Source: Planctomycetota bacterium (GTDB lineage: Bacteria > Planctomycetota > Planctomycetia > Pirellulales > Lacipirellulaceae). From it: DNA of 64,000 bases. The translations under genes were made by a program, and so were the position numbers. The number at the start of each line of letters is the position of its first letter. The stretch's first letter is position 1. The stretch lies in contig JBCCXZ010000001.1 of assembly GCA_039190745.1 (NCBI GenBank), positions 85,620 through 149,619 on the forward strand, written 5' to 3'. Shown here piece by piece: positions 40,984-62,543 of this stretch. The notes beneath the pieces are model-generated. The model saw nothing but the letters and a program-made list of their open reading frames with translations. It searched no databases and was not told where the DNA came from.

Positions 40984-41144
40984 CGGTTTATCCCCCGTTG
41001 TTGGTGACGTTCGTTTCGTGTGGGTGTATCGGTGGCGTCGCCCGTCGGAGCGGGCGCGCGGAGTCGCTCCGCAAACATAGCTCGCGTCCGTGCTACCGCG
41101 GGGACCGCCCGAGGCGGCGCGGCCGCTACAACCGCTCCCAGCGG

Positions 41145-42887: not shown

Positions 42888-43844
42888 CTACGACGCCCCG
42901 CTCACGGAATCGAACGACGCGTCGAGCACTTCGCGGTTCACGCCGCCGAAGCGGAATGCGTTGCCCGTCTCGGCGTTGTGCAGAGCGATCTCCGCGGGGC
43001 TGAAGAGCAGCGGGTCGATCTTGTAGAAGTCGTGGTCGTAGGCGCGGAGCACCTCGGCGAACGGGCGGCCGTAGTCGGCCGAGGCGGAGCTCGGGACGCG
43101 GGGGCCGATTGCTTTGAGCGAGGCGTCGTCGCCCCGGACGGTGAGCGTCACTTGTCCGCCGTAGAGGATCGCGTCGTTGGTGACGCCGATCGCGGCGAGG
43201 TCGTCGCCGGCGACCGGCGGCATCGGCGCTGTGCCGCGGCCGGATTGGATGCGCTCGAGGTCGAAGCCAAGCTCGTGCAGCTTGTGCAGTGCGGTCTCGA
43301 CGCTGCGGGCGGCGATCTGCACCGTGCCCGCCGGGCTGCTGGTGGGCGCCACCAGCAGCGTGAGCCGCTCCGGCGGCACGCAGCACTTCTCGGCGATGCC
43401 GGTGCACACGTCCGAGCCAGGCAGTTTGGCCGACTCGAGTACGCCGACGCAGTGCTCCGCCTGTTCGCGCCGGCCGATGTGGTCGAACAGTTCCTCTCGT
43501 CCGGCGGCGGCACGCATGGGTCCCGAGCCCATCGCAAAGTAGCCCTCGCCTTTCACTTCCCAGCCGGCGTACTGCGACGCCATACAGGCGGCAACGGGAT
43601 CTTCCGTTTCGACCGAGACGGTTGCTTCGTCAGCGGCGACCCTCGCGAGGTCGGCCAGGCAGACGCGTGCGAGCATCACACCAGCGGCGACGCTGCCCGG
43701 AGCGTTGACCCCGAAGTCCCAGAGCGCGGCTCCACCGGCGTTCGACCGGGCGATCCCGAGGCCTTCGGACTCCTGTTCAAGGTTTCGGCAGAGCAACGCC
43801 GCGCGTGCGTTCAGTCCGAGCTGATTAGCGGGGGAGTTGTGCAT
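42888..43844 (-). CDS. mch: Methenyltetrahydromethanopterin cyclohydrolase
   Basis: ACMASQYAGW, FAMGSGPMRA, QIAARSVETALHKLH, TNDAILYGG, DFYKIDPLLFSPA. Confidence 0.95.
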   Translation of the reverse strand: MHNSPANQLGLNARAALLCRNLEQESEGLGIARSNAGGAALWDFGVNAPGSVAAGVMLARVCLADLARVAADEATVSVETEDPVAACMASQYAGWEVKGEGYFAMGSGPMRAAAGREELFDHIGRREQAEHCVGVLESAKLPGSDVCTGIAEKCCVPPERLTLLVAPTSSPAGTVQIAARSVETALHKLHELGFDLERIQSGRGTAPMPPVAGDDLAAIGVTNDAILYGGQVTLTVRGDDASLKAIGPRVPSSASADYGRPFAEVLRAYDHDFYKIDPLLFSPAEIALHNAETGNAFRFGGVNREVLDASFDSVSGAS

Positions 43845-43855
43845 CCTGCGGCGGC

Positions 43856-46078
43856 TCAGCTCTCGGGTTGGGTGTCTGAGGGGGTTTCGGGTGCTTGGCG
43901 GGCCTGCTGCATGCGTTGGTAGATGCCCCGCACGGCCGGGTCCCCCGGTCGGAGCCGCTCCATCTGCCCCAGTGCGTCGACCGCGAGTTGCCACTCGCCC
44001 TCTTGCTCAGCCAGCAAGGCCAGCGCGAGCCAGTTCTCGTAGGCGTCCGGCTCTAGCTTGCACGCCTCCGCCAGGAAGGAGAGCGCTTCTTCGCCACGCT
44101 CCAGCAAGTACAACAGCATACCGAGGCGGTAGCGCGGCTCGGCGTTGTCGGGCAGGATTTTGCAGTCGCGCTTCAGCAGCTCCGCCTCTTCGGTTCTCAG
44201 CTCGCGGATCTCGGAGGAGTCGCCCGACTCTTGCTCAAGCACCCGGGCCAGCTCCCAACGCGGGCCGGTGAGGTAGGGCTCCATGCGGATCGCGTCGCGC
44301 ATGGCTTGAACCGCGTCGTCGGTCCTGCCGAGCGACTGTTAGAGCGCCGCCCGCTGCATGTTGGTGCCGGCGCGGTCGAGGATCACCTCCTGCCCTGTCT
44401 GGTACTCTTCGAGCGCTTCCTGGAGGATCGGCTCGTGCTCGGTGCCCTGCAGCTGCGGGGCGCGCTCCACCAGCCGGCTGGCGGCTGCGAAGCGGACGAG
44501 GCGGGCGCTGTCTCGCAGGTGCCAGGCCGATTCCAGCGCCATCTCGTCGATCGAGCGTTCGGCCGCCGCACGCAACGCCGTGGCCCGCACGAGCGGGCTC
44601 CGCTCGTCGACCGCTTCGCGGCAGAGCTTCTGCGCCTCGGCGTCTGCGATCCGGCCGAGTGCCCGCACCGCGGTGGCGTGGACGATCTCCGGGTAGTCTC
44701 GGCGGAGTACCTCGCGGAGCATCTCCACAGCCTCGGGCTTGCCCTCCCAGCCGGCAGCGAGCGCTGGCGCGTAGTGGGGGTCGTCGGGCCGCTTGTCGCC
44801 GTACCACTCGCGGACTGCTTCGGCCGCCCAGGCGGCGTCCTCCTCGGGCTTGGTGTGGCAGTCGTTGCAGGCGTTGGGCGTGCCCAGCTCCACGCTCAGG
44901 TCGGGCCGCGGGACGCGGAAGCTGTGGTCGCGGCGCCCGTCGACCACCATGTAATGTCTCTCGGGCATGTGGCAGTTGACGCACTGCTGGGCCGCTTCCC
45001 CGGCGCCGGCGTGGTGGTGGTGACCAGCGCCGTCGTACTTCCCGGGTTGGTGGCACTGGGCGCACAGCTGGTTGCCTTCGAACTTTAGCTTGAGCGAGTG
45101 CGGGTTGTGGCAGTCGGTGCACTTCACGTTTTCGTGGTACATCTTGCTCTGCAGGAACGAGCCGTAGACGTACACCTCGTCGAGGATCTGCCCGTCCGCG
45201 TGGTACAGGCCCGGCTCGAGCAGCGACGGCGCGAAGTGATCGAAGAACCGGTTGCCGGCGTGCCAGTCGCCGTGGATGGCCGTCCTCCGAGAGTGGCACG
45301 GGGCGCAGGCTTCGAGCTGCTTGCGGTTGCTCGCGTTCTTCAAGCCGCTCAAGGCGTAGCCGCGGCGGCGGTCCCAGAAGAGCGACCGGCTCTCGGCCAA
45401 TTCGGCGTGCAGGCTCCCCGGGCCGTGGCACGCCTCGCAGCTGACGTCGATTTCCGAGTAGGTGGTGTCATAGGTGTTGGAGGCGAGCGTGAAGTTTTTC
45501 TGTAGGTTGGTCGAGTGGCACTCGGCGCACATGGTGTTCCAGTTTTGTGCAAGGCCCGTCCAGTGCAGGGGGTCGTCTGGCTCCAGTCGCTCGTCGACCG
45601 CGTCGGGCGGCGGCACGTAGAACCATTCGTTGCGGACGGTGTCCCAAGAGACGCGGAGGACTTGCACACGGCCGCCCTCGAGCTCGACCATGTACTGCTG
45701 CAGCGGGTCGACGCCGAACGTGTAGTCGACGCGGTAGTCGTGCATCTCCCCGTCGGGGCCCTCGGTGCGGACCCAGTACTCGGCGCCCTTGCGGTAGAAC
45801 CGGGTGGTGACGCCCAGCCGGGTGAATTCGGCGTTGTCGAAATCGCCCAGCACGGTGTCGTCGGTCGCGAGCTCCATCGCCCGGTCGTGGTGGGATCCGG
45901 CCCAGTCAGAGGCCTCTTGCTGGTGACAGCTGATGCAGCGTTCGCGGCCGACGTAGCCGGCGACCGCCTCCTCGGGGATAGCGACGTACCAGTCGGCCAG
46001 GCAGCCGAGCCCGAAGAGGGCGAGCAGCCCCGCGAAGACGGCGGCCTTGCCGGGGCGTCGGTTGGGGGGCGTGGTCAT
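43856..46078 (-). pseudogene. Octaheme cytochrome c with HEAT and TPR domains, interrupted by an in-frame TAA at 44339-44341
   Basis: 8 CxxCH motifs; frame continues through the stop: QRAAL*QSLGRTDDAVQAMRDAIRMEP into TPRs. Confidence 0.8.
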
Positions 46079-46286
46079 ACGCGGGGCGTCTGAGAGATTA
46101 CTGGCGTCCGAGGCCGGCGGCGGACGATGAATCCCCGGCGGCGGTCCTGTCCAGCATAGCCCGAGGCCGCGGTGCACGCACGGCGTGGCCGGCTGCCCCG
46201 CGGCAGGGCTGGCCACACCGTGGAGCGGGGCGATACAATACGCGGCCCAATTGGCTTAGCGGTTCCTCACCGCTGCAGCCGACGAT

Positions 46287-46504: not shown

Positions 46505-48652
46505 TTATTTGCCGCTCGATCCCCGCAGTTGCCGGAAGAGCCACTCACCGAGGGTTGAGCTCGCGTCGGCGACGCGGACGACTACCCGTCGGCCGCAAGC
46601 AAGCTCCGCGGCCGCGCTGGAGGGCAGCTTGAGCGTGCCCTTGAAGTGAATTTCTAGCAACTCGACCCCTGCAGACTCGGCTGCTTCGGTCGGATCTGCC
46701 GGATGCTCAACCAGCAGTGTGCCGCCGTTTTCCGCCGCGAGTGCGGGGTGCGAGAGTCGCTTTGCGCCGCGGGGCTCTAGTGTACCGCCCGCCAGTGAAG
46801 CCCCTTCGAGTGATCCGAAACCTCCCACGCTCAGCGGCACAAGCAGGGATTCACTTATTCCAGCTCGGTAGCGAACAAGTTCTTGCTCGGGGATCAGAAA
46901 CTCGACGCACTTGGCCGATTCATCGCCAAGTTCCACTACGGCGCTTCCTTGGTCGAGGTAGCGCCCGGTGAGCGAGTCGAGCCCTCTGGATACGACGCGG
47001 CCATTCGTCGGCGATCGAACGGTTAGGGCGTCGGTCTTCCGTTGGAGGTCCAGCCGCTCTGCCTCCAGGGCGGAGTGCCGTTCAAGCTCCGCCTCCAGGC
47101 TCGCCAGCTCGTGGGAGTTTCGGAGCTGCCTGCAACGCAGTTGTGAGGCTTCGAGTTTGAGTTCCACTGCGGCGAGGCCCTGGGAAAGCTCTCGGTTGAC
47201 CAGGGTCACCAGGGGCTGCCCGGCCGCGACCGGTTGGCCGTCGTGAACGTGCACTCGCTCGACAAATCCGGCTACTTCGTTGCGGGCGACGGAGTCGTCT
47301 TGGTAGGCAACGATACCGAGCGTCGCCGTGCCGGTGGGGCTCGGCAGAGTGGCCAGTCCGGCCGTGATCAATGCTGTGGCGGCCACACCGAGCGTTGCGA
47401 ATCGCCAGAGTCCCTGGCGGTCATTTCGGTACTTGCTTCTTAGTTGCTCACAAAGACGCCAAGCTGGGCGGCCGAACCACGTCGTCCCAGCCGTCAGAGC
47501 GAGCACCACGCCGGCTCCCCCCCACAGCCGCGACGCCCCCAGCAGCAGCCCGACGCTGACGAAGACCCGCCACCCGAAGGCCAACACACCGTAAGTTCTC
47601 GCAAACAGCGAAGCGGTCGATGGGCGTGTTGTTCCCGGCGCCGTGCCGAAGAACAGCCGGGCGGCGGCCGACTTGATCCAGCGGTTCCCGTCTGCGTAGA
47701 GGTTTGGCATCTCGAGCAGGTCGGCGAGCAGGTAGTAGCCGTCGAAACGCATGAGGGGGTTGGCGTTAAACAGCACTGTTGTGAGGCTCGCCGCCAGCAC
47801 GACGTTGGCGCTCCACTGATGCAGCAACCCCGGTTCGGTCAAGGCCCACACGAGCGAGGCCGCCGACGCGGACACGAGTTCGGCCTGCATGCCTGCTGCG
47901 GCGACGTGCATGCGTTGCCACTTCGAGCGGAGTCGCCAGCAAGAGGAAACGTCGACATAGGGGAGCGGAAAGAACAGCACCATCAGGACGCCGACTCCGC
48001 CGATCCTGCCCCCGTAGCGTTGGCAGGCGACGGCGTGGGCCAACTCGTGCAGCACCTTCAAGAGCAGCCAGCTAAGGACCAGCAAACACTGATTGAACGG
48101 GCTAAAGACTCCGCTGAGCGAATCATAGAATTCTCCCCGCTTGAACAGGACCAAGACGAATGCCGCTAGACAGGCGACCACGGCGGCGGCGGTTGCCCGG
48201 GGGCTCAACAGCGGCGCCGCATGTCGGCTCAGACTGTCGAGCCACCTGCCGGGGTGGTACCGGGGTGACTGGATGACGAGCGGGTTCCACGGGGTCGCAG
48301 GCTGCGCGGCGTGGGGCTGCTCTTCCGGCTGTGCCGTGTGAATCAAGCCTTGCCCGCGTGCCCACGCCAGGAGCCGTTGGGCTTCGTCCCCGGTGAAAGC
48401 AGGGAGGCCCTTGTCTTCCGCACGCCGGTTCGCAGCGCCGAGGGCTCCGTCTGCGGCTTCGCAACCCAGAGAGGTCAGCAGGGCGTACTCTCTGGGGCCA
48501 ACTCGGTAGAACTTGCGGCGCAGCGGGTCCTCGATAACAAACTCGACCCGTCCTCGCCGACGCTGCGGGCGGAAGACAAGGTCGGCTCGGAGCGACAGCG
48601 GTTCGGCCAAAGCGGTATGGGCGTTTGGCCGGGCTCTTGTGGTTGCGATCAC
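46505..48652 (-). CDS. M50 (site-2) membrane metalloprotease fused to an HlyD/MFP-type domain; PqqD-like N-terminus
   Basis: HELAH, AAAGM, NANPLMRFDGYY; then lipoyl-hairpin-lipoyl (GFVERVHVHDGQPVAAGQPL ... LTVRSPTNGRV). Confidence 0.85.
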   Translation of the reverse strand: MIATTRARPNAHTALAEPLSLRADLVFRPQRRRGRVEFVIEDPLRRKFYRVGPREYALLTSLGCEAADGALGAANRRAEDKGLPAFTGDEAQRLLAWARGQGLIHTAQPEEQPHAAQPATPWNPLVIQSPRYHPGRWLDSLSRHAAPLLSPRATAAAVVACLAAFVLVLFKRGEFYDSLSGVFSPFNQCLLVLSWLLLKVLHELAHAVACQRYGGRIGGVGVLMVLFFPLPYVDVSSCWRLRSKWQRMHVAAAGMQAELVSASAASLVWALTEPGLLHQWSANVVLAASLTTVLFNANPLMRFDGYYLLADLLEMPNLYADGNRWIKSAAARLFFGTAPGTTRPSTASLFARTYGVLAFGWRVFVSVGLLLGASRLWGGAGVVLALTAGTTWFGRPAWRLCEQLRSKYRNDRQGLWRFATLGVAATALITAGLATLPSPTGTATLGIVAYQDDSVARNEVAGFVERVHVHDGQPVAAGQPLVTLVNRELSQGLAAVELKLEASQLRCRQLRNSHELASLEAELERHSALEAERLDLQRKTDALTVRSPTNGRVVSRGLDSLTGRYLDQGSAVVELGDESAKCVEFLIPEQELVRYRAGISESLLVPLSVGGFGSLEGASLAGGTLEPRGAKRLSHPALAAENGGTLLVEHPADPTEAAESAGVELLEIHFKGTLKLPSSAAAELACGRRVVVRVADASSTLGEWLFRQLRGSSGK

Positions 48653-48655
48653 GGC

Positions 48656-50056
48656 CTACCACCCCCACCAGCGGGATGCCTTTTCCATCGGCTGATGGAA
48701 CCAACTCCAGCTGAGTGTGGCCCACGGTCCACGCACCCTTGCCCGTCCCGTCATCCCCGGGCGGAGCAGATGATCTTGGTTGTCGAGTTCTAACTCGCCG
48801 ACGAACACTTGCTCGTGCCCGCGGAGTTCCGCCTGCGGGTGGATCCGGCTCAGCTTCCCCTCCCAAGTCCGTCCGGGGAAAGCGTCGAACTTGACAATCG
48901 TGTCGGCCCCGGCTGTTGCGTAGCCGACCTCGGACTCAGGAAGCAACACCTCGACCACGAGCCGATCGAGCGGGGCGACCTCAAAGAGCGACTGCCCCGT
49001 CTCCAGGGGAGCGCCCTGGACCCGCGAGAGGTCGCCGCTGACGACGCAGCCGTTGATCGGGCTCACGATGCGGAGCTGCGAGAGCCGGTCTCGCAGCAGG
49101 GCGATCCGGAGCTGGATCTCGCGGGCTTCGAGTGCGGCGAGTTGGGCCTCGGCGGTCGCACGCTTGGCCCTGGCCGAGTCGGCGGCTTTCTTGGCGCGTG
49201 CGTGCTCCGCTTCCAACACAGACAACTCTTGTTCCAATTCGTTCCCGTCCAACACCGCAAGCAGTTGACCCTCGTGGACGAGGTCTCCGCACTGCGCGGC
49301 CGCCGTGCTCAGCGTGGCGTCGAACGGGGCCGCCACGTAACGGGTGACTTTCGGCTGCGCCACACAGTCGCACCGGACGCTGTACGGCACAGGCGCGAAG
49401 GCCAAGAGAACGAGCCCGATGGCTGCCCCCAGGGCGAGCCGCCGTTTACGGCGGGAGTTCATTTTCTCTGACAGCGTGTCGAGCGCTACTCGCGCGGCTC
49501 CCCGATCAGCCCGTCGGAGTGTTGCGAATGCATCGGCAAAAGGTTCGGAGACCCCTTGGAGGGTGCGGTCGGCAAGAGCGCAGTCGCCGGGGTCGTCTCC
49601 CCAGGCGAGGCAGACGCCGATCGTCTTCTCGCCGGAGTTCCGGAGACCAATGCTGACGATCCACTCGCAGCCGAGTTGCCCGGCGAGCTGCGTGAGCGTG
49701 CGGGGACACTCCGCCGCCGCGTCGCCCCTCACCCAACGGGCAGCCTTCTCCCAATACAACGCTTCGTCCATCGCGGCTTCCATGTCGCGTGTCCGCTCGG
49801 ATCCGCGGTCGATTGATGGAACGCCGCTGACCGACATGAGGCTAGCGACCCCGCTGCGGTCGACTTCCCCGAAGGCAACTTGCGCATTGCCGAGTCGCCG
49901 GGCGAGTAACTCGGTCGCCGCTTGGGTGCTCTCTGACGCTTGGCGACCATCGAGCAACACCCCGACGAGATCGAGCGCCAAGTCGCTCACGCCCGAAGGT
50001 GCTCCGGCGTCTTTGCGTTCTTGCGTCCGCGTCCGCTGATTGGTCGTGGTCTGCAT
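48656..50056 (-). CDS. HlyD-family periplasmic adaptor with N-terminal GAF-like domain
   Basis: AAMDEA in soluble N-terminus; TM; VAAPFDATL, IVSPINGCVVSGDL, LRPGMTGRA. Confidence 0.85.
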   Translation of the reverse strand: MQTTTNQRTRTQERKDAGAPSGVSDLALDLVGVLLDGRQASESTQAATELLARRLGNAQVAFGEVDRSGVASLMSVSGVPSIDRGSERTRDMEAAMDEALYWEKAARWVRGDAAAECPRTLTQLAGQLGCEWIVSIGLRNSGEKTIGVCLAWGDDPGDCALADRTLQGVSEPFADAFATLRRADRGAARVALDTLSEKMNSRRKRRLALGAAIGLVLLAFAPVPYSVRCDCVAQPKVTRYVAAPFDATLSTAAAQCGDLVHEGQLLAVLDGNELEQELSVLEAEHARAKKAADSARAKRATAEAQLAALEAREIQLRIALLRDRLSQLRIVSPINGCVVSGDLSRVQGAPLETGQSLFEVAPLDRLVVEVLLPESEVGYATAGADTIVKFDAFPGRTWEGKLSRIHPQAELRGHEQVFVGELELDNQDHLLRPGMTGRARVRGPWATLSWSWFHQPMEKASRWWGW

Positions 50057-50088
50057 GGGAGTGCTCCTCGCCGAGGCCAGCGGGGCCG

Positions 50089-50985
50089 TTAAGGCGTCGC
50101 GAGCCGGCAGGCCTGACCGCTCCGCAGGCGACCGTCGAGGTTGGGGATGCGGACCTTTACGGTCGCGGTGCCGCTCTCTGCGTCGAGGACAGGAGAGACG
50201 AACTCGACCACCCCTTGGTGCTGCTCGCCGGTCTCAGTCACGCTCACCTGCAGGCGTTGGCCTTCTTCGAACAGCGCGGCCTCGGCCCCAAGCACGTTGA
50301 AGTTTGCGACCAAGGGGTCTAACTGGACCACGGTGAACAGGACCGGGTCGTTCGGGGCCGTGAACTCGCCGACCTGCTTGTAGACGTCGGTGACGACACC
50401 GCGTATGGGGGCACGGATGGTCCGCCGCTCGATCTGAACGAGTATCCGCTTGTGCTCGAGTTCTTTCAGCCTCAGGTTTTCCTCGGCTTGAGCCAGCTGG
50501 CCCTGAGCGATGGTCAGATCGGCCCGGGCGCGTTCCATCTCGTCGTGGCTCGCGTGGCCCTTGGCCCAGACCGACTCGATCGCCGCGGCACGTTGCTGCC
50601 GGAGCCGTACCTCCGCCTCGGACGCGGTGAGACGCCCGCGCGCGTCTTTGCCGGCCTCCGCGATCGCCAGCAGCGCTTCGTGCAACTCGGTGTCCAGCCG
50701 GGCCAGCGGCTCTCCGGCCTCGACCGGCTGCCCGATCTCGACCAGCAGTTCCTTAACGATCCCCGATTCGGGCGCAGCCACACGGATGGTCTTGTGGGGC
50801 TCGGTGAAGGCCTCGAACACCGACCATTCTGCGTCGGAGTCCGGCAAATTCGCGTCGTACTCTCCGCGAGAGTCCTGGGAGACTCCAATGACCACAACCA
50901 CACACGCTAGGGCGCCTAAGGTCTTGGGGAAAAACCGGGTCTTCAGGGAAGGCCGGTTCGTGACAAAGAACACGGGAGATTTCAT
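50089..50985 (-). CDS. RND-type membrane fusion protein (periplasmic adaptor)
   Basis: VAAPESGIVKELLVEIGQPVEAGEPL, IRAPIRGVV, SPVLDAESGT, LRSGQ; start ATG 50985 inferred. Confidence 0.88.
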   Translation of the reverse strand: MKSPVFFVTNRPSLKTRFFPKTLGALACVVVVIGVSQDSRGEYDANLPDSDAEWSVFEAFTEPHKTIRVAAPESGIVKELLVEIGQPVEAGEPLARLDTELHEALLAIAEAGKDARGRLTASEAEVRLRQQRAAAIESVWAKGHASHDEMERARADLTIAQGQLAQAEENLRLKELEHKRILVQIERRTIRAPIRGVVTDVYKQVGEFTAPNDPVLFTVVQLDPLVANFNVLGAEAALFEEGQRLQVSVTETGEQHQGVVEFVSPVLDAESGTATVKVRIPNLDGRLRSGQACRLATP

Positions 50986-51191
50986 GGGGATACCTAGCTG
51001 AGGGGGATCATCAACGCCCCGCCAACCAGCTCCGCACGCGATCGTCCAGCGCTGCACGCGATCGCTAGGTGGTTTTCTTCAGGGCCCAGAAACGTAGCCC
51101 ACAGATCACATTCGAGCGGCCGTGAGAGCTGAATCAGAGAGCGCCCCAGGCGGGCATTGAAATAGCGCGGGCCGATCGCGCGGCTTGCGGG

Positions 51192-53030
51192 TCAGGGCTG
51201 TTCGCCCCGGGGGATCTCTTCAGGCGCCGCCGCCGGTGCAACCGGCTCAGCCGGCAGAATCACGGGATACCCTGCGGCCGTCTCAACTTGATCAGAGAGC
51301 AGTGTGCCCAAGGCCCGTTGCAGCTCTGCGTCCGCCAGCGCCTGCCGCACCTGCGCGGCCACCACCTGCTGCTCCTCCTCGACGAGCCGGTCTTCCGCGT
51401 TGAGCAGGTCGTCGAGCACGAAGCTGGTCGACTGCTCGTACCCGGGCAGCATCCGCCACCGCTCGGTGAGGTACTCGACCTCGGCCCGGGTCGCCTCGAG
51501 CGCGGCCAATCGGGCGATGAATTCTTGGTGGACGATGCGCACTTCGCGGTTGGCGATCTCAACCTCCGCGCCCAGTTCGGCAGTCGCGGTACTCAACTGG
51601 CGGGAGAGCCGGGCCAGCTCGAGCTGCCGCTGACGCAGCCGGGCCCGCGCCTGCCGGCGCCCCAAGGGGACCTCAATGGCCAGCCCGGCCGTGTAGCTCG
51701 GCGCCCCTTCGCTGAACTGGTCGCCAAACGACCGGCCGACGTCGTACTCCCCGGTGAGCCCGTTGACGTAGCCATCCAGCACCAAGGCCAACGAGGGCAG
51801 CAACTGGTTCTTGGCCACGTCGGTGCGCACCGCGTTCGCCTTGATCTGAGCCAGCAGGTTGTCGATCTCCGGCCGGTGTTGGAGGGCTGTCTGTTTTGCC
51901 AGGCAGAGGTCGCCGAAGGCCGGGTGATCGACCGGGGCGTCGGCCGGCAGCAGCTCGGGGCCGCCTCGGCCGCACAGCCGTGGGGAGTTGACCAGAGAAC
52001 GCAGCTGGGCCTCGGCGTTGCGGACCCCCGCCTGTGCGCGGATCAAGTCCGCCCGCCGCGAGGCGACCTTCGAGCGCGCGCGTGCGATCTGGCTCCGGAG
52101 CGCATCAATCTGCCGGCGGTTCTCCAGCTCTTTCTGGATTCTTACTGCCCGGTCGAGGTTGCGTTGCTTCTGCAGCACCAGAGAACGCTGCAAGTAGAGC
52201 TGCCAGTACTGCCGGACGACCTTCAGGAGGTGGTCTTGCAGGCCCTCCAGGTATTCATCCCAGGCGACGCGCGTGTCGACGCTCGCGAGCACGATTAGGC
52301 TGCGGTTCACCTTCTTGCCCGCGTCACGGAGCAAGGGCTGCCGGAGGCTGACCGAGAGGCGCGTTTGAGCCTGGTCATTCGGGATGAAGAAGGTCGAGTT
52401 GCTCTCCTGAAGGATGAGTTGCTGCGAGACCTCCACCGAGGCGCCCGTCTGGGTCTTCCGGCGGTAGCCGATGTTCTCGGTGACGGTCTCTTCCAAGAAC
52501 CTGGGCACGCCGCCGGTGGTCAAGAAACTGCCGACCGGCTCATCGCGGTCGAACCAACGGTTCTCCAAGAAAACCGTGGCGTCGAACGCGGCCTCGGCTT
52601 GGGTGATGCGGGTTTCCCCAATGGCGGGCAGCACCCGCAGCGATTGGATCTGGTGAGAGTGGCTTAAGGCCTCGACCGCGATGTCTTCGAGCGTGAGCGC
52701 CACCGTGGGGCCGATCCCCCGTTGCGGCGTCCGGACCTCCTCTGCCCACCAAAGCTTCTTGTTGGCTGCGACAGCTGCATCGACCTCTTCGGGCTCCGTG
52801 CTTGCGGATGCACTCGGCGGCGTCAGCGGTTCCGGGCGGGCCGGTTGGGGCTGGTAGGGCCGCTCCTGCTCCGGGAAGACAACCGGCGGCAGATCGACAA
52901 GCGTGCTGCCGGCTATCGGATGAGGCGGGGGAGCGAAACCGGCCGCGTGCGGCTGCGGCGACGCGCAGCAGCAGGCAGCCTGGCCGGCGACCAGGCAGAG
53001 CAACGCCAACACGAACCCCTCAAAGCGCAT
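51192..53030 (-). CDS. TolC-family outer membrane channel
   Basis: Signal peptide; LTLEDIAVEAL, LRQPLLRDAG, ALQHRPEI, KNQLLPSL, LQRALGTLL. Confidence 0.9.
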   Translation of the reverse strand: MRFEGFVLALLCLVAGQAACCCASPQPHAAGFAPPPHPIAGSTLVDLPPVVFPEQERPYQPQPARPEPLTPPSASASTEPEEVDAAVAANKKLWWAEEVRTPQRGIGPTVALTLEDIAVEALSHSHQIQSLRVLPAIGETRITQAEAAFDATVFLENRWFDRDEPVGSFLTTGGVPRFLEETVTENIGYRRKTQTGASVEVSQQLILQESNSTFFIPNDQAQTRLSVSLRQPLLRDAGKKVNRSLIVLASVDTRVAWDEYLEGLQDHLLKVVRQYWQLYLQRSLVLQKQRNLDRAVRIQKELENRRQIDALRSQIARARSKVASRRADLIRAQAGVRNAEAQLRSLVNSPRLCGRGGPELLPADAPVDHPAFGDLCLAKQTALQHRPEIDNLLAQIKANAVRTDVAKNQLLPSLALVLDGYVNGLTGEYDVGRSFGDQFSEGAPSYTAGLAIEVPLGRRQARARLRQRQLELARLSRQLSTATAELGAEVEIANREVRIVHQEFIARLAALEATRAEVEYLTERWRMLPGYEQSTSFVLDDLLNAEDRLVEEEQQVVAAQVRQALADAELQRALGTLLSDQVETAAGYPVILPAEPVAPAAAPEEIPRGEQP

Positions 53031-53442
53031 CCCGTACTGCGGCCGACTTACCGTCGACCCCCCCTCTCAACCAGCTGCTCCGGACGCTCAATCGTCCTTG
53101 TCCTCTTATCGTTTATCGTCGAGGTTGGGTCTGTGCGGCTTAGTCTAGTTTTGAGGTAGGGCTTAGCTCGTGCACCTCTACGCTCGGAGCAACCGCGACA
53201 GTCCTCAGAACCGGTAAAGTTTCCCTCGCACAAAATCTCCACCAGCCAGGGATTGCACAAACCCGCAAGGCTGGATCGATCGACCCGCAAAAAGGCGAGT
53301 CCGACTGGAGATGCGCAGGCGTGACCTAGCCTTTTCCGTGCTACAGACCGGGGAATCCTCTTGAAGCTCCCTTGGTCAGCAGCACACGGAGAACGAGAGC
53401 AATCTCGTCTCGGATTTGCGTCAAAGAACCGAGCCTTGACTG

Positions 53443-56400
53443 ATGCTGCGGCCTGCCTTCCTGCGAATGAAACGTCTTGCCTTCGGCGGCGCCGAGCCGG
53501 TTGTCGGCGCGCCGGCGGCCACGCTCGACGTGGCCTTGCTGGAGGACCGCATCCTCTACAGCGCGACCCCGCTCCCCGTGGACGTTGACGCTGTTGTAGA
53601 CGCGGTTCCTGACGATGCTTTACTTGAACCCGGTGTAGAGCAGGTCCTCGCGGAGCCCCAGGACGACTCGGGTTCAGACGGCACGCCTGCCGCGGATGGC
53701 GGAGACGATTCTCTACTGACGACTGACGGGGGCCTCGAACAACAAGCGGTCGGCGATAAGCTGTACTGGGCCGATTTCACTGGCGAACGCATCGTGCGTT
53801 CCGACCTGGACGGCTCAAACGTCGAGGATGTCGTCACCGGCATCTCCGGGCCCGGCGGCATCGCGATCGACGACGTCAGCGGAAAGGTCTACTGGTCGGA
53901 GTTCTTCTCCGGCAGGATCCGTCGAGCGGACCTAGACGGCTCGAACGTCGAAGACGTCGTCACCGGAGTCGAGGGACCGAGCGGCATCGACATCGACGAG
54001 TCGGCCGGCAAGCTTTACTTCGTCGAGAACGGGCTCTTCACCAACAAAATCCGTCGCGTCGACCTCGACGGCTCGAACGACGAAGACCTGATTACGTCCG
54101 GGCTATCCAACCCCGAGGTGGTCCACCTCGATGTTGCGGGCGGCAAGATGTACTGGACCGACAGCTTCACTAGCAAGCTGCAACGGTCGAACCTCGACGG
54201 CTCGTCGGTCGAAGACATCGTCACTAGCGTCTCGGGGCCGCGGGCGGTGGCGATCGACAACGCGGGCGGCAAGGTCTACTGGATCCAGGACGGCTTAGGA
54301 GACAACCGCGTCCGCCGCGCAGACCTCGACGGGGGAAACGTTGAAGACTTGGTGACATCTGGGCTCACCACGCCGTACGGGCTTGCCATCGATCTCGACG
54401 AAAGCAAGCTCTACTGGACAGACCGGGATACCAACAAGATCCAGCGGTCGGACCTCGACGGCGGCAACGTCGAAGACATCCTCACCGGGGTAGACTTCCC
54501 CGTGAACCTGGTGATCAGCAACGCGGGCGTCGACCCCGCACCAGTCATCACAGGCCTCGACGGCGATGCCCTCACCTACCCCGAGGGCAGTGGCGCCCAG
54601 GTCATCGACCAGGGCGGTGACGCAACGGTCGTCGATCCCGATTCAACCGACTTCCAGGGTGGGACCCTCACGGTCAGGATCAGTGTCGGCGGCGTCACCG
54701 GAGAAGACATCCTCTTCATCCGCGACCAGGGCCCCGGGGCGGGCAACATTTGGATCGAAGGGTCAACCGTCCGTTACGGCCCCACTGCGGCTGGCCTGTC
54801 GATCGGCACTTACAGCGGCGGCACGGGTGGTGCACCGCTAGTGATTGCGCTAGATGACGAGGCAACCCCCGAAGCATTATCCCTGCTGCTGCGGAACATC
54901 ACCTACGAAAACACTGAGGGTAGCAACCCCACGGCCGGCACGCGGACCGTGGGCTTCGATCTCGACGACGGCGACGGCAACCTCAGCGGCACGCAAACCA
55001 CCAGCGTGGAGGTGCAGAGCACGAACGACGAGCAGAGCCTCGACGTGAATCTGCCTCTTGCACTGAATGAAGGCGGCTCGGACACCATCGACAACACTTT
55101 GCTGGCAACCAGCGACCCCGACCATGCCGCTATGCTCCTCTCCTACACGGTGAGCTCCGGGCCAACCAACGGCCAACTCTTCCGCTCGGGCGTCGCCGCG
55201 ACGAGCTTTACCCAGGCCGACGTCGACGCGGGCCTGATCACCTACCAGCACGACGGCGGCGAAACCGTCTCCGACAGCTTCACTTTCACCGTCGACGACG
55301 GGGAGGGCGTCGTCAGCGGAGGCACGTTTAGCATCTCTGTCTACCCGGTGAACGACGAGCAACAGCTGGTCACCAATAGTACGCGCAGCGTGGGCCAGGG
55401 AATGACGGCAACCCTCGGCAATGCGTTCTTGCGTACGACCGACGTGGACAACACCGCCGACCAGATTGTGTACACGGTGAACGCCGCGCCGGCCAACGGG
55501 ACGCTGCTAGTGGACGGGACCCCCAGCGGGTCGTTCACGCAGCAGCAGGTCGACGCCGGCATGGTGGCGTACCAGCACGACGGCTCGGCCACCGTGAGCG
55601 ATTCGTTCTCCTTTACCGTCGACGACGGAGAGGGAGTCGCGACCGCGAGTACGTTCAACATCACGGTCACCGGCGTCGACTTCGAAGAGTCGCTCGACGT
55701 GAACCTGCCTCTCAGTCTCGGCGAGGGCGCCGCCGCGACGATCGACAACACCCTGCTCTCCGCGAGCGACGCCGACAACACTGCCGTTCAGCTTGTATAC
55801 ACAATCGGATCGGGGCCGACGAACGGTGCGATCCTAGTGGACGGTTTCGTAGCCGCCGGCTTTACCCAAGCAGACGTCGACGCGGGCTTGGTGAGCTACC
55901 AGCACGACGGCGGCGAGACCACGGGCGACTCCTTCACGTTCAGCCTCGACGACGGGTCGGGAGACGCGACGGTCGGCACTTTCCAGATCGGTGTGACGCC
56001 CGTCAACGACGAGCAGACGCTCGCCGTCAACGCAGGCTTAACCGTGAACGAGGGCGCCGTTTCGGTCATCAGCAACACGGTTCTGTCGACAACCGACGCC
56101 GACAACTCGTCCGACGAGATTGTCTACACCGTGACCGGGGCGCCTCCGGGAGGGAAAGTTCTACTGTCGGGTGCCCCCGCGACCAGCTTCACCCAGGCCC
56201 ACATCAATGCGGGGCTGGTCACTTACCAGAACGACGGCGGCGAGGCAAACTCCGATAGCTTTTCGTTCACTGTCGACGACGGCGCCGGGGCGGTCACGGC
56301 GGGCGTTTTCACGGTGAACATCACGCCGCAGAATGATGAACAAAGCTTATCCGTGAATCTCCCGCTGGGGATCGCAGAGGGCGGCGTGGGAACCATCACC

Positions 56401-58317
56401 GGGGCTCTGCTATCGGCCACAGACGTCGACAACACGGCCGCAGAGTTGGCGTACTCCGTCACGAGCAGCCCCTCCAGCGGCGCGGTGCTGCTCTCCGGGG
56501 CAGCAACGACCGGCTTCACCCAAGACGATCTCGACAACGGCCTGGTGACCTACCAGCACGACGGCGGCGAGGCGACGGCCGACTCGTTTACCTTCTCGGT
56601 TGACGACGGCCAGGGCTCGGCCACCGCGGGCGTCTTTATGATCAATGTCACGCCGATCAACGACGAGCAGAGTCTGGCGCTCAACTCGCCGCTGGTGATC
56701 GCCGAAGGCGCCACGGGGCTGATAGACGGCAGCTTGCTCGCGGCGGCCGACCCCGACAACACGGCGACCGAACTGACCTACACAATCACCGGGGCAACGT
56801 CCAACGGCGTGTTGCTGCTGAGCGGCTCGACGACGACCGTGTTCACGCAGGCGGAGCTGGACGCGGGTCTGGTCTCCTACACGCACGACGGCGGCCCATC
56901 GACCACGGATCAGTTCACCTTCAACGTCGACGACGGAGCCGGGACTGCGACGGCCGGCGCCTTCTCGATCGTGATCAACAACACAAACGACGCGCCGCTG
57001 GTTTCGACGCCGGTGAGCGTGACGATTGCAGAAGACGGAGCCTTCGCGCCGCTCGCCTTTACCATCTCCGACGAGGAAACGGCCGCCGGTGACCTGACCG
57101 TCACGGCGACCTCCGGGGATCAGTCGCTGTTCGCCGATGCCGGGCTCACAATCGGCGGGGCCGACTCCGACCGCACCATCTCCGGCGCTGCCGTGGCCGA
57201 CCAGTCGGGCGGGCCGGTGGTCATCACTCTCAGTGTGAGTGATGGCGTCAACACTTCCCACGTGCAGTTCTCCGTGACGGTCACCCCAGCGGCGGACGCA
57301 CCCATTGCGGACGCGGACTCCTACCGCACCTCGGAGGGAGCAACGCTGATTGTCGCGGGCCCGGGCGTGCTGATCGGGGACTCCGACGCCGACGCGGACG
57401 CGATCACCGCGGTGCTCGACACCGCCCCCGCCAACGGGACCCTCGCGCTGCGAGCGGACGGCGGCTTCACGTACACGCCAGACGCCGGGTTTGTCGGCAG
57501 CGACCAATTCACCTACCGAGCCCACGACGGGGCTCTGTCGAGTGCGCCCGCGACGGTCACGATCGAAGTGGCGGCTTCGATCGCCCCCCCGCCTCCCGTC
57601 ACCGACCCGCCGCCGGACACACGCTCCCCCGAAGAGCCGGTGGCCGAGGACCCGCCTTCCAGCGAGGAAGAGCCCTCCAGGGGGGACACAGAAACCCCGG
57701 CGCCAGAAAGCCCCGGGGGCCCGACAGATCTCGCGCCTCCGTCGGACGACCGCAGCAACAATCCGCCCACCGCCGAGGGCCCGCGTGAGGTGCTGGCTGT
57801 GCCGCCCGCCGCCGACGAGACGCCCGTAGAAGCGGGTGACGAGGTTGCCGCGGCAGGCGATTCCCTACCCGCCGAATTCACCCGAGACTCGGACACCCGA
57901 TCCACCAAGCTCGACGCGGTACTCCGACGCCAGGAAGTCCGTAACGCGACCCTGGGCGACTACACCTTCGTCTTGGAAACCAGCCCCCTGTGGGACGACC
58001 TGAACCAGCTCGACGAGATGGTCGAGCAGTCGTCGGACTTCAATCAGCTGGCGATCGGGTCGGCCCTGGGGATGACCTCGAGCCTAACGGCGGGGTACGT
58101 GCTCTGGCTCATGCGGGGCGGCTACCTGCTCAGCAGCATGCTCGCGCAGATGCCGGCATGGTCGTTCGTCGACCCACTGCCGGTGCTCGAGTTCCTTACC
58201 AAGCAAGACGAAGACGACGACGAAGACTCGGTTGAGGGCATGCTGGAAAAACACAACCGCCGCCCGGATCCCGAGGCGCCGCAAAACGACAATCAACCCG
58301 TCAGCACGAGTGAATAG
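53443..58317 (+). CDS. Large adhesin-like protein: LEPR-XLL motif, 6 YWTD repeats, Ig-like, 6 cadherin/CSPG repeats, 2 Ig-like, Pro-rich linker, hydrophobic C-terminal tail
   Basis: LLEDRILYS; KLYWTD-like x6; NDEQ...FTQADVDAGLxxYQHDG x6 at 327-nt period; GYVLWLMRGGYLLSSMLAQMPAWSFVDPLPVL. Confidence 0.92.
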   Translation: MLRPAFLRMKRLAFGGAEPVVGAPAATLDVALLEDRILYSATPLPVDVDAVVDAVPDDALLEPGVEQVLAEPQDDSGSDGTPAADGGDDSLLTTDGGLEQQAVGDKLYWADFTGERIVRSDLDGSNVEDVVTGISGPGGIAIDDVSGKVYWSEFFSGRIRRADLDGSNVEDVVTGVEGPSGIDIDESAGKLYFVENGLFTNKIRRVDLDGSNDEDLITSGLSNPEVVHLDVAGGKMYWTDSFTSKLQRSNLDGSSVEDIVTSVSGPRAVAIDNAGGKVYWIQDGLGDNRVRRADLDGGNVEDLVTSGLTTPYGLAIDLDESKLYWTDRDTNKIQRSDLDGGNVEDILTGVDFPVNLVISNAGVDPAPVITGLDGDALTYPEGSGAQVIDQGGDATVVDPDSTDFQGGTLTVRISVGGVTGEDILFIRDQGPGAGNIWIEGSTVRYGPTAAGLSIGTYSGGTGGAPLVIALDDEATPEALSLLLRNITYENTEGSNPTAGTRTVGFDLDDGDGNLSGTQTTSVEVQSTNDEQSLDVNLPLALNEGGSDTIDNTLLATSDPDHAAMLLSYTVSSGPTNGQLFRSGVAATSFTQADVDAGLITYQHDGGETVSDSFTFTVDDGEGVVSGGTFSISVYPVNDEQQLVTNSTRSVGQGMTATLGNAFLRTTDVDNTADQIVYTVNAAPANGTLLVDGTPSGSFTQQQVDAGMVAYQHDGSATVSDSFSFTVDDGEGVATASTFNITVTGVDFEESLDVNLPLSLGEGAAATIDNTLLSASDADNTAVQLVYTIGSGPTNGAILVDGFVAAGFTQADVDAGLVSYQHDGGETTGDSFTFSLDDGSGDATVGTFQIGVTPVNDEQTLAVNAGLTVNEGAVSVISNTVLSTTDADNSSDEIVYTVTGAPPGGKVLLSGAPATSFTQAHINAGLVTYQNDGGEANSDSFSFTVDDGAGAVTAGVFTVNITPQNDEQSLSVNLPLGIAEGGVGTITGALLSATDVDNTAAELAYSVTSSPSSGAVLLSGAATTGFTQDDLDNGLVTYQHDGGEATADSFTFSVDDGQGSATAGVFMINVTPINDEQSLALNSPLVIAEGATGLIDGSLLAAADPDNTATELTYTITGATSNGVLLLSGSTTTVFTQAELDAGLVSYTHDGGPSTTDQFTFNVDDGAGTATAGAFSIVINNTNDAPLVSTPVSVTIAEDGAFAPLAFTISDEETAAGDLTVTATSGDQSLFADAGLTIGGADSDRTISGAAVADQSGGPVVITLSVSDGVNTSHVQFSVTVTPAADAPIADADSYRTSEGATLIVAGPGVLIGDSDADADAITAVLDTAPANGTLALRADGGFTYTPDAGFVGSDQFTYRAHDGALSSAPATVTIEVAASIAPPPPVTDPPPDTRSPEEPVAEDPPSSEEEPSRGDTETPAPESPGGPTDLAPPSDDRSNNPPTAEGPREVLAVPPAADETPVEAGDEVAAAGDSLPAEFTRDSDTRSTKLDAVLRRQEVRNATLGDYTFVLETSPLWDDLNQLDEMVEQSSDFNQLAIGSALGMTSSLTAGYVLWLMRGGYLLSSMLAQMPAWSFVDPLPVLEFLTKQDEDDDEDSVEGMLEKHNRRPDPEAPQNDNQPVSTSE

Positions 58318-61036
58318 CGCCATGCTGTGGTTCTCTGCAAAGTCCCGGATCGCGTTCGGGCAGGTCTGCCTGCTTTCGAGCATCATCCTCCTGGCGATCG
58401 TGCTCGGCATCGTGCCAGACCGCCAGCAAGCGGTGCTCGAGGGCCGGGCGAGTTTGTGTGAGGCGGTAGCCATTCAGGCATCGATGCTTGTAGGCCCGCG
58501 TGGCGCCGAACGATTGCAATCGTTGCTGGATGCGGTGGTGCGGCGTAACGATGAACTGCTTTCGGTAGGACTGCGCCGAAGGGACGGCAGGCTCGTGGCC
58601 GCCGGGGGAGAGCACGCGGGTCATTGGCAACCGTTGTCGGACGAGCGTTCGCTCGACCGCCAGATCCAGGTCCCCATCCATTCCCGCGGCGGAGAGCAGC
58701 GGTGGGGAACGCTTGAGTTCTGCTTCGAACCGCTCCACGCCGAGGGCGCGTGGGCCCTGCTGGAGAACTCCTGGCTCCGACTCATCCTGTTCGTCGGCGC
58801 CCTCAGCGGGCTGCTCAACTACCACTACCTCGGCAAGATGCTGCAGCATCTCGACCCGTCGAAGACCGTCCCCGCGCGCGTGCGGTCGGCCCTGAACCGA
58901 CTGGCAGAAGGCCTGCTCGTGATCGACCGCCGAGGCTGCGTCGTGCTGGCGAACGATGCGCTAGCGGGGAACCTGGGCAGCACCTCCGACGAGCTCTTGG
59001 GCAACAAGGTTTCGTCGATCGAGTGGATCGAGTCGGACGGGAGGCTCGCCGAGGGGCCGTTCCCCTGGGAGATCGCGCAGGCCACCGGCGAGGCCCAACT
59101 GGGCGTGAGCATCGGACTGCAAACCGCCGACCGCGGGCGCGTCCGCTACATCGTCAACGCCACCCCCGTCCTCGATCAGCAGGGAAAGAGCCGCGGAGTC
59201 TTCGCGAGCTTCGACGACGTGACCCAACTCGAAGAGACCAAGATCGAGCTCGAGACGACCAAGGCCGAGGCCGAGGAGGCCAACAACGCCAAGAGCGAGT
59301 TCCTCGCCCGCATGAGCCACGAGATCCGCACGCCGATGAACGCCATCCTAGGGTTCACGGACGTGCTCCGCCGCGGCTTCGAAACCACCGAGCACGATCG
59401 GATCGACTACCTGAACACGATTCACTCAAGCGGCAAGCACCTGCTGCACCTGATCAACGACATCCTCGACCTCTCGAAGGTCGAAGCCGGCAAGCTCGAA
59501 CTCGAGCGGCGCGAGTGCAACGCCCTGCAGCTGATCGCCGAGGTCATTACCGTGATGCGGGCCAAGGCCGACGAGAAGTCGCTCGAACTCTCGCTCGAAA
59601 CCCCCAGCCCGGTTCCCGAAACTATTGTTACCGACCCTACCCGGCTGCGCCAGATCGTGACGAACCTCGTCGGGAACGCGATCAAATTCACCGAGCAGGG
59701 CGGTGTCCGGGTCACCCTCAGGCTCGCGGACGGGGAAGGGGCGCCGCTCTTGGCGATCGATGTCGCCGACACCGGCATCGGCATGTCGTCCGATGCGCAG
59801 CAACGCGTCTTCGACCCGTTCTCGCAGGCTGACGCTACCGTGACACGCCGTTTCGGGGGCACGGGCCTGGGGCTCTCGATCAGCAAGAGCTTCGCCGAGG
59901 CCCTCGGCGGGGCGATCACCGTCGAGAGCGAGCCGGGCCGCGGCACCACCTTCACGGCCTCGATAGCAACCGGGCCGATCGACAACGTACCGCGCGTGAC
60001 CGCGGAAGAGATCACCGCAAGGATCTCCCCCTCCGCCATCGGCGAGCGAAACGTGGTGAGCCTCCGGGGCGTCTCGGTTCTGGTTACCGACGACGGCGAG
60101 GCCAACCGGAAACTGGCGGGCTTGGTCCTTCGGCGCGCCGGGGCCTCCGTCGACGAAGCGTGCAACGGGGCCGAAGCGATTCAACGGATCGAGCAAGGCA
60201 GCTTCGACATCGTCCTGATGGACATGCAGATGCCCGTCATGGACGGCATGACCGCAACTGGTCGCCTCCGCGATGAAGGAGCCGAGCTCCCGATCATCGC
60301 CCTCACGGCGGACGCCATGAAGGGCACCGAACAGCGGTGCCTAGAAGCCGGATTCAGCGGCTACTTGACCAAACCGATCGACACCGACTTGCTGCTTAGC
60401 ACAATCGCCGATCAGCTCGGGATCGACGCCACGGGCAACGACGCATCGAAATCAGTGCAGACCGAAGACCTCGGCGAATCCCCTCGGAATCAAGCATTTA
60501 TTGCTTCGTTCTCCGAGTGGTACGCACGGAGCGGCATCGAACAAATCGCGGCCGAAGCACTGCGGATGCCTGGTCCCGAAGCCGAGCAGATTGCAAGTGT
60601 GTGTCAGACGCTCTCAGAAATAAGCTCGCTTCACCAAGCCGGAACCGCCCACGCTGAGCAAGGCACAGACTATGACCTGCGACCCGAACAGGCGGCGGGA
60701 GCGGATGTTGAGCCGCCCATCCTCTCAACGCTTCCGGTGGAAGACGACGAAATGCGGCAGATTGTCTGCGGCTGGACCGAGCGTCTTGGGGAACAACTCA
60801 CGGCGATGCAAAACGCAATTGACCGCAGCGACGCTGAGGAAACCGCAAGGCTGGCTCACTGGCTGAAGGGCTCGGCCGGGACGGTCGGCTTTTCAGACTT
60901 TACCGAGCCGGCCAAGCGACTGGAGAAGCACGCCAAACTCGCCGAGATGCAGCAGGCCGCTGAAGAGCTCAAAGTGATCGTGAGTTTGTCACAGAGGATC
61001 AGCCTGCCAAACACCGATACCGGGCTGCCACTTTAG
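58310..61036 (+). CDS. Hybrid sensor histidine kinase (TM-periplasmic-TM, PAS, HisKA, HATPase, REC, HPt)
   Basis: MSHEIRTPMN, NLVGNAIKFT, DTGIG, GGTGLGL, LMDMQMPVMDG, AHWLKGSAG; start GTG 58310 or ATG 58322. Confidence 0.95.
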   Translation: MNSAMLWFSAKSRIAFGQVCLLSSIILLAIVLGIVPDRQQAVLEGRASLCEAVAIQASMLVGPRGAERLQSLLDAVVRRNDELLSVGLRRRDGRLVAAGGEHAGHWQPLSDERSLDRQIQVPIHSRGGEQRWGTLEFCFEPLHAEGAWALLENSWLRLILFVGALSGLLNYHYLGKMLQHLDPSKTVPARVRSALNRLAEGLLVIDRRGCVVLANDALAGNLGSTSDELLGNKVSSIEWIESDGRLAEGPFPWEIAQATGEAQLGVSIGLQTADRGRVRYIVNATPVLDQQGKSRGVFASFDDVTQLEETKIELETTKAEAEEANNAKSEFLARMSHEIRTPMNAILGFTDVLRRGFETTEHDRIDYLNTIHSSGKHLLHLINDILDLSKVEAGKLELERRECNALQLIAEVITVMRAKADEKSLELSLETPSPVPETIVTDPTRLRQIVTNLVGNAIKFTEQGGVRVTLRLADGEGAPLLAIDVADTGIGMSSDAQQRVFDPFSQADATVTRRFGGTGLGLSISKSFAEALGGAITVESEPGRGTTFTASIATGPIDNVPRVTAEEITARISPSAIGERNVVSLRGVSVLVTDDGEANRKLAGLVLRRAGASVDEACNGAEAIQRIEQGSFDIVLMDMQMPVMDGMTATGRLRDEGAELPIIALTADAMKGTEQRCLEAGFSGYLTKPIDTDLLLSTIADQLGIDATGNDASKSVQTEDLGESPRNQAFIASFSEWYARSGIEQIAAEALRMPGPEAEQIASVCQTLSEISSLHQAGTAHAEQGTDYDLRPEQAAGADVEPPILSTLPVEDDEMRQIVCGWTERLGEQLTAMQNAIDRSDAEETARLAHWLKGSAGTVGFSDFTEPAKRLEKHAKLAEMQQAAEELKVIVSLSQRISLPNTDTGLPL

Positions 61037-62440: not shown

Positions 62441-62543
62441 AAGCGTCGGGGCATTCTCTTCTACCGCCGCTTTTTTTGGTGAAAACCGCTCGCTCCGTTC
62501 GGTCGATTCCCCATCCAGAACCGACTCGAACCGGCCCCGCGCG

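Follow-up and report, generated by a model that had tools for sequence, protein, structure and literature searches.

Giant adhesins are exported by type I systems such as HlyBD–TolC and LapBCE, the latter serving LapA and being associated with LapD and LapG. LapA tethering is also stated in a recent preprint on Chlorobium (10.64898/2026.03.19.712371). A module devoid of ABC transporter was described by Kamneva, Poudel and Ward in 2015 on purely computational grounds: in the sections of their paper cited here (PMC4452313), it consists of a locus for a secondary SecA_DEAD protein, an M50–HlyD fusion, a GAF–HlyD protein, an HlyD protein and sometimes an OEP protein, the M50 protein being proposed as the pore and SecA_DEAD as the ATPase, and some of its components may be encoded away from the locus. 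We found neither a follow-up of this work nor an experiment on any member in the open-access literature. Large surface proteins bearing the N-terminal LEPR-XLL (NF012209) or Planc_extracel (PF07595) motif have been reported as well. For planctomycetes, the motif has been described as a novel export signal (PMC8567305), and in Chlorobium, LEPRxLL giants encoded beside tolC leave the cell by a route that the authors hypothesize, proposing SapC, TolC and a HlyD (10.64898/2026.03.19.712371); the word peptidase does not occur in the preprint. Neither source, in the parts used, connects the motif with an M50/RRE machine, and no paper assigning this leader to any machine was found in the open-access literature.

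We determined computationally the gene content of the present locus and its domains, catalytic motifs, RRE fold, leader, linker, C-terminal tail, linkage to a sensor and extra-operon SecA2, starting from a window of 64,000 nucleotides (the whole stretch of DNA that was analysed). Judging from the named matches of its proteins, this DNA probably comes from a planctomycete. Four genes on the reverse strand encode a TolC-family outer membrane factor (OMF; 51192–53030; PF02321, with TIGR01844 below cut-off), a plain MFP with a hydrophobic anchor at its N-terminus (50089–51057; Pfam, NCBIfam), a protein made of a GAF-like domain, one TM helix and an MFP (48656–50056; Pfam and homology) and an M50–MFP fusion in which an RRE and an M50 site-2 protease precede a HlyD-type MFP (46505–48652, called start at 48610, 701 aa). 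As originally predicted, they face a divergent gene on the forward strand, which encodes a 1624-aa adhesin, the putative cargo (53443–58317; ORF, Pfam/NCBIfam domains). A gap of 134 bp (51058–51191) separates tolC from mfp, at the position occupied by a secondary secA gene in operons of the same layout. Past the cargo gene, on the same strand, come a hybrid sensor kinase gene (58322–61036), which starts 4 bp past the cargo stop, and a gene for a REC–HD-GYP response regulator of the c-di-GMP phosphodiesterase type (61226–62440; Pfam, NCBIfam). All seven ORFs are open, and catalytic residues are intact. In the operon products, Pfam recognizes OEP, three HlyD-type domains and, weakly, Peptidase_M50. 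Promoter-like sites occur at chance level (2 found versus 1.6 expected in a promoter scan); terminator-like sites number 22 versus 11, most of them within genes.

The absence of an ABC or RND pump from the locus was borne out: none of the five proteins (TolC, MFP, GAF-like MFP, M50–MFP and cargo) contains a Walker A motif, and Pfam likewise reveals no ABC, RND or SecA gene among the four operon genes and the cargo gene. Among the operon products, the M50 fusion alone is indeed a polytopic inner-membrane protein. The GAF-like designation rests on homology: the GAF-like MFP itself has no Pfam GAF match, but its N-terminal domain resembles, at an HMM E of 1.8e-27, the domain next to the membrane in longer proteins of the family, and in one of these Pfam recognizes a GAF domain at that place. 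Beyond the original prediction, the analysis brought to light the RRE, a secondary SecA, two paralogous M50–MFP cassettes elsewhere in the genome (contigs C8 and C16), the C-terminal domain of the cargo, the sensor kinase and the HD-GYP protein. M50–MFP proteins are present in 71 of the 71 genomes of the family.

The locus is a member of the module predicted in 2015, in a variant whose ATPase is encoded outside the operon and which includes a tail–sensor unit. Like that module, it combines an M50–HlyD fusion, a GAF–HlyD protein (here by homology), a plain HlyD protein and an OEP protein without an ABC transporter (PMC4452313, sections cited); unlike it, it has no secondary secA (secA2) in the operon, the gene being absent at the locus and present on contig C23. 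Those sections mention neither a cargo nor a leader, an RRE, a C-terminal tail or a sensor for the module. Since an M50 pore and a SecA_DEAD ATPase were proposed there, the main inference of the original prediction, that the M50 fusion may replace the pump, was already in print, and its statement that no mechanistic description of this architecture was known must be withdrawn. For the tail–sensor unit, we found no prior description in the open-access literature. With the type I systems of giant adhesins, the present system has in common a duct made of MFP and a TolC-family OMF, a repeat adhesin without signal peptide, a probable retention at the surface and a link to c-di-GMP. By contrast, it has three MFP domains and no ABC transporter: none was found in the locus, none is conserved in homologous loci and none in the genome reaches the type I cut-off. 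Its cargo bears an N-terminal leader instead of the C-terminal RTX signal of type I substrates, being devoid of GGxGxD repeats and ending in a different conserved domain in place of the C-terminal secretion signal, and it has a predicted C-terminal inner-membrane anchor in place of an N-terminal periplasmic plug.

In the AF2 model of the M50–MFP fusion (pLDDT 90, 118-sequence alignment), the protein begins with an RRE fold of the leader-binding type, for which leader binding is predicted. This domain (48332–48598, reverse strand), made of three strands and three helices, is predicted to be cytoplasmic: about seven long helices appear to lie between the RRE and the MFP, which would place the former inside and the latter outside. 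Residues 5–93 resemble leader-bound RREs (TbiB1–leader 5v1u, Z 9.4, rmsd 3.1, 82 aligned; 6jx3, Z 9.3), the M50 core resembles RseP and SpoIVFB (Z 9.9) and the remainder is an MFP. The RRE and M50 matches came from a VIA search, the whole-model Foldseek search having listed MFPs only. At the profile level, the RRE region matches PqqD 3g2b (E 7e-4), and PqqD PF05402 was found in 28 of 97 family members. In the M50 core, the zinc-binding motif HELAH (HExxH; 48035–48049, reverse strand) and the NxNP..DG residues show no variation among 118 homologues, and HExxH is also kept in all 76 M50–MFP sequences of the tree set; the zinc ligands (HExxH and NxxPxxxxDG) sit within membrane helices, as in M50 site-2 proteases. 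Among the NCBIfam models, the daptide RRE-protease NF041824 comes closest (E 8e-48; 163 bits versus a cut-off of 300 bits). The corresponding daptide enzyme, MpaP, removes a leader with an ELExMEAP motif (bioRxiv 10.1101/2023.03.08.531785, in the part used here); it likewise has an RRE fused to an intramembrane site-2 protease, but its substrates are short RiPP precursors and neither an MFP nor a TolC belongs to it. By analogy with MpaP, the M50 site of the fusion probably clips the LEPR-XLL leader.

The cargo comprises a LEPR-XLL leader, a YWTD-type beta-propeller, six Cadherin_3 domains, an Ig/tandem-95 repeat, a disordered linker and a C-terminal tail. As anticipated, hydropathy and motif checks revealed neither a Sec signal peptide nor RTX repeats: no hydropathy peak of at least 1.3 and no hydrophobic signal peptide was found before residue 1084, and the cargo contains no GGxGxD repeat; it contains no Cys either. 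The leader motif, of LEPR-XLL/Planc_extracel type (53524–53571, forward strand; NF012209 and pattern), scores 18.2 bits with NF012209 on a 40-aa fragment and 15.8 bits on the whole cargo, for a curated cut-off of 17. About 15 other proteins of the genome bear leaders of this type. Leaders were counted by pattern searches, the pattern matching 15 of 17 cognate leaders, whereas a first leader HMM missed most of them. In the M50 tree, the leader subtype tracks the M50 clade; as cassette and cargo are inherited together, we did not count this as co-evolution.

Ahead of the tail lies a Pro/Glu/Ser-rich linker of about 130–150 residues (57570–57966, forward strand; disorder comparison), proposed to be a trans-envelope tether. 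A disorder-rich, beta-poor segment precedes the tail in all 47 tail-bearing proteins of at least 600 aa, with a crude median of 130 residues, in a test that is itself crude and uses beta-sandwich repeats as the comparison set. Tripartite ducts are about 30 nm long; an extended linker of about 130 residues would measure about 40 nm and should therefore be long enough to span one.

The tail (57967–58242, forward strand; column statistics) is a conserved C-terminal domain composed of an amphipathic helix, a charge-free segment (58051–58113), an R–GG element, PAW, DP and an acidic end. In an alignment of 89 sequences, a nearly charge-free stretch of 21 residues is followed by R (94%), GG and a second uncharged stretch, then by an invariant P and W, by DP and by the acidic end (sequence L159 was left out of this alignment, A6, on account of misregistration). 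The helix is moderately hydrophobic: the best 19-residue KD mean is 1.31 in the cargo and has a median of 1.55 in the 89 sequences. A search with the last 120 residues as query yielded 3751 representatives (threshold E 0.001), and a scan of 53 members assigned the tail to no family of Pfam or NCBIfam. The PxW..DP element lies no more than 88 residues from the C-terminus in 149 of the 150 best matches (range 39–88 aa). A LEPR-XLL leader is present in 30 of 40 tail matches of at least 1000 aa, versus 0 of 119 and 0 of 117 controls. Single-sequence AF2 modelling of the tail gave a pLDDT of 56, and a tblastn search of plasmids with the tail gave no match. The tail is patchy at every level sampled (2 of 71 genomes of the family, 5 of 251 of the phylum, 42 of 401 of the class), which marks the tail-bearing cassette as accessory.

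The kinase encoded directly downstream consists of a TM segment, a Cache-like periplasmic module, a second TM segment, PAS, HisKA, HATPase, REC and Hpt. Its N-terminal TM–periplasmic–TM module (hereafter, the sensor) has no Pfam match in the seven members scanned; language-model features place the periplasmic part near the sCache, CHASE, GAPES4 and LapD_MoxY_N clusters, as a lead. The sensor is found fused to kinase or to GGDEF/HD-GYP outputs. In the class sample, it is present in 40 of the 42 tail-bearing genomes versus 17 of the 359 tail-less ones, and tail and sensor copy numbers are correlated (rho 0.90, 401 genomes), counts in which related genomes are not independent and to which four sample genomes contributed sequences of the sensor profile. 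A sensor gene lies directly downstream of the tail gene in 41 of 69 places, and in 3 of 3 in a second phylum; it is absent directly behind the other 28, and of 81 sensor genes, 40 are located elsewhere than immediately behind a detected tail. Complex prediction with two copies of the N-terminal module and the cargo tail gave no answer (score 0.00), the fold of the partner being uncertain, and carries no weight here. That the tail of a large tagged adhesin usually comes with a dedicated sensor suggests an anchored surface feeler.

We then turned to the motor. Of the homologous loci L012–L095, those with an M50 core were counted, 83 in all, 22 of them with wide flanks; a single-protein query of genome contigs had yielded 5 related loci. 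SecA2 was seen in 33 of the 83 loci. Among the 22 with wide flanks, 15 have SecA2, 11 an OMF, 3 an ABC NBD (at no fixed position) and none an RND pump. Calling the system pump-less is thus right as regards ABC and RND proteins, no ABC gene being conserved in the neighbourhood, but not as regards SecA2, which is frequent in these loci and of which the present genome holds an orphan copy. Indeed, the original prediction had itself named the routine presence of a SecA-type ATPase in homologous loci as an observation that would speak against it, and for this lineage that is largely what the 15 wide loci show. Four operons of the same layout have secA2 between tolC and mfp (G662, G724, G915 and G831), and five others lack it (G886, G841, G034, G031 and G035), as does the present one. 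Using SecA2 from five similar loci as queries, we found no SecA2 remnant in the 64,000-nt window, the tolC–mfp gap included. On the M50 tree, SecA-less operons are scattered, and the sister sequence of the present M50 protein has SecA2 (the trees, of 63 and 76 rows, were restricted to loci whose context is known or that have a leader next to them).

The genome contains two SecA_DEAD genes, one for the housekeeping SecA and one, on C23, for a SecA2 of 653 aa with intact ATPase motifs, no SecA_SW match and no adjoining module genes. This SecA2 is found as a single copy in 70 of the 71 family genomes (69 of 70 relatives), with 70–94% identity, and a secondary SecA is likewise encoded elsewhere in all five other genomes with a SecA-less operon that were checked. 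The C23 protein is only 37–44% identical to the SecA2 of same-layout operons, its score being about as close as that of the housekeeping SecA, and its use by the present cassette is for that reason an assumption; no SecA2 of the cognate type was found in the assembly, which is 95% complete. Elsewhere, in the phylum to which a Geobacter MAG belongs, M50–MFP occurs in 16 of 201 genomes. Two or more SecA_DEAD genes are present in 7 of these 16 versus 5 of the 185 others, and the remaining 9 show a single one, the housekeeping SecA. Five of these nine, rechecked at E 0.01, have no secondary SecA, and two of the five are nearly single-contig assemblies, which indicates that SecA2 is not a universal requirement. 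A single clade (support 0.999) comprises seven loci whose genomes have one SecA_DEAD match (E 1e-50); three of these loci have LEPR/DUF4347 giants, near which OMF, MFPs and M50 are seen. Since SecA-less operons are scattered and some genomes have only the housekeeping SecA, the motor is separable from the cassette. It is usually a dedicated SecA2, is here probably supplied in trans and, in some lineages, is probably the housekeeping SecA or is dispensed with altogether.

The explanation that best fits these data, and to which we give about an even chance, is that the locus is one cassette of the SecA-associated, type-I-like module that has no ABC pump, and is dedicated to the adjacent adhesin. 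The latter would be exported leader first by a SecA-type motor acting in trans, with the tail as its tether and the sensor as its signalling partner. On the cytoplasmic side, the LEPR-XLL leader would be bound by the RRE of the M50 fusion and probably clipped by the M50 site, and a SecA-type ATPase, most likely the C23 protein and otherwise the housekeeping SecA, would push the chain, still unfolded and led by its N-terminus, through a ring formed by the three proteins with MFP domains and into TolC. Export would halt at the C-terminal charge-free helix, so that the adhesin would remain fixed to the inner membrane while its linker runs through the duct, and tail and sensor would together report attachment or the state of export to the phosphorelay and the HD-GYP c-di-GMP enzyme. 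The operon could be partly crippled, the C23 protein being distant from the operon-type SecA2. A stronger version of this idea, in which a recently acquired cassette has lost its cognate secA2 and is decaying and no longer works, could account for the rarity of the tail in the family and for the lack of a cognate-type SecA2 in the assembly. We find it very unlikely, in view of the open frames of all seven genes, of the intact catalytic residues and of the recurrence, in other lineages, of SecA-less operons whose frames are open.

Other schemes differ as to what moves the chain. In line with the original prediction, export could do without any ATPase, the M50/MFP ring gating the cargo; the proton motive force or folding of the repeats outside the cell would then move the chain, SecA2 being an optional helper; the clade of loci from genomes with a single SecA_DEAD match and the repeated loss of secA2 from operons would fit such a scheme. 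It is nonetheless unlikely, as all these genomes have a housekeeping SecA that could serve, and as SecA2 is strongly enriched along with M50–MFP and highly conserved in the family. SecA normally works on SecYEG, which is in favour of a two-step process where SecYEG, with SecA or SecA2, takes the cargo across the inner membrane, the role of the M50 protein is confined to processing either the leader or, in a sortase-like release, the C-terminal helix, and MFP–TolC takes over the periplasmic chain. The small-residue-rich helix of the tail may also resemble the substrates of intramembrane proteases, and Chlorobium symbiosis proteins are reported, in the part of the preprint used here, to be periplasmic in the absence of the partner (10.64898/2026.03.19.712371). 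We nevertheless consider two-step export unlikely: the leader is devoid of a hydrophobic core, the wing/scaffold domain, which has been implicated in the contact with SecYEG, is missing from SecA2 (PMC4452313, sections cited), and the tail is not the general M50 substrate, since the genome has a single tail gene against about 15 other leader proteins and the paralogous cassettes serve leader proteins without tail. Finally, three ABC_membrane exporters are encoded in the genome, and one of them might power an ordinary type I system from a distance, with the M50 fusion as an accessory. This is highly improbable: two of the three have MsbA-type models as their nearest match, the type I cut-off is reached by none, the third is accompanied on C17 by an MFP and an OMF of its own, homologous loci have no conserved ABC neighbour and the cargo has no RTX repeats.

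Many of the largest bacterial proteins bear the LEPR-XLL/Planc_extracel leader, and the present cassette makes testable the questions of whether the RRE is the receptor of this leader, which SecA powers export and whether the adhesin acts as a tethered sensor, as it offers a small cargo, a complete duct and a built-in readout in the form of the kinase and the HD-GYP protein. We tentatively suggest, as a possibility that is rather less likely than its contrary, that the cassette represents a distinct class of one-step secretion, in which an RRE-protease reads the leader and threads giant proteins N-terminus first through a hetero-oligomeric MFP–TolC duct, with a SecA-type motor or none, and in which the adhesin would be a trans-envelope receptor whose inner-membrane tail signals surface contact to a partner kinase or c-di-GMP enzyme. 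If this is true, two widespread unannotated domains would receive a name, a route that does without an ABC pump would join the known modes of secretion, and surface sensing would gain a new form.

In addition to the operon in the window, the source genome (G000) carries a second cassette on contig C8 (G000:C8:1-12535, locus L008), made up of a LEPR-XLL giant bearing domains of the RTX, laminin G and cadherin types, an MFP, an RRE-M50-MFP and a GAF-MFP, together with an OMF on the opposite strand; in the clade of this cassette (4 loci), the cargo leaders end in LLSATW. A third cassette, on contig C16 (G000:C16:20099-25515; L010:12100-17516), consists of a GAF-MFP, an MFP and an RRE-M50-MFP, with neither OMF nor cargo adjoining. 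It seems to be the copy common to the whole family, and it may serve the scattered proteins (about 15) that bear a Planc_extracel leader. The same genome encodes an orphan secondary SecA on contig C23 (G000:C23:1255-3216, L007), which displays 70-94% identity across the family, i.e. a conservation like that of a housekeeping gene.

Just downstream of the window operon, also on the minus strand, lie a gene for a multiheme cytochrome c with HEAT repeats (44339-46216) and, after it, a TPR-like ORF (43856-44302). The minus-strand ORFs at 42009-43994 presumably encode a methenyl-H4MPT cyclohydrolase and a RimK-type ligase, C1-transfer genes typical in planctomycetes. We take the minus-strand pair at 39346-41807 to be Flotillin/SPFH-like and NfeD-like, and assume that two plus-strand ORFs (62421-63733) correspond to a photolyase-like protein.

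At the comparison locus L165 (G283:C5:702478-704019), about 1.5 kb separates the tail gene from the sensor gene; the short ORF in this gap is, we presume from its appearance by eye, transposase-like.

The RRE-M50-MFP cassettes L260-L269 (genomes G337, G479, G492, G413 and G503) form one clade, some members of which are adjoined by LEPR/DUF4347 giants. The housekeeping SecA is the only SecA in these genomes, and this clade provides the best candidates for a form that is either motorless or driven by SecA1.
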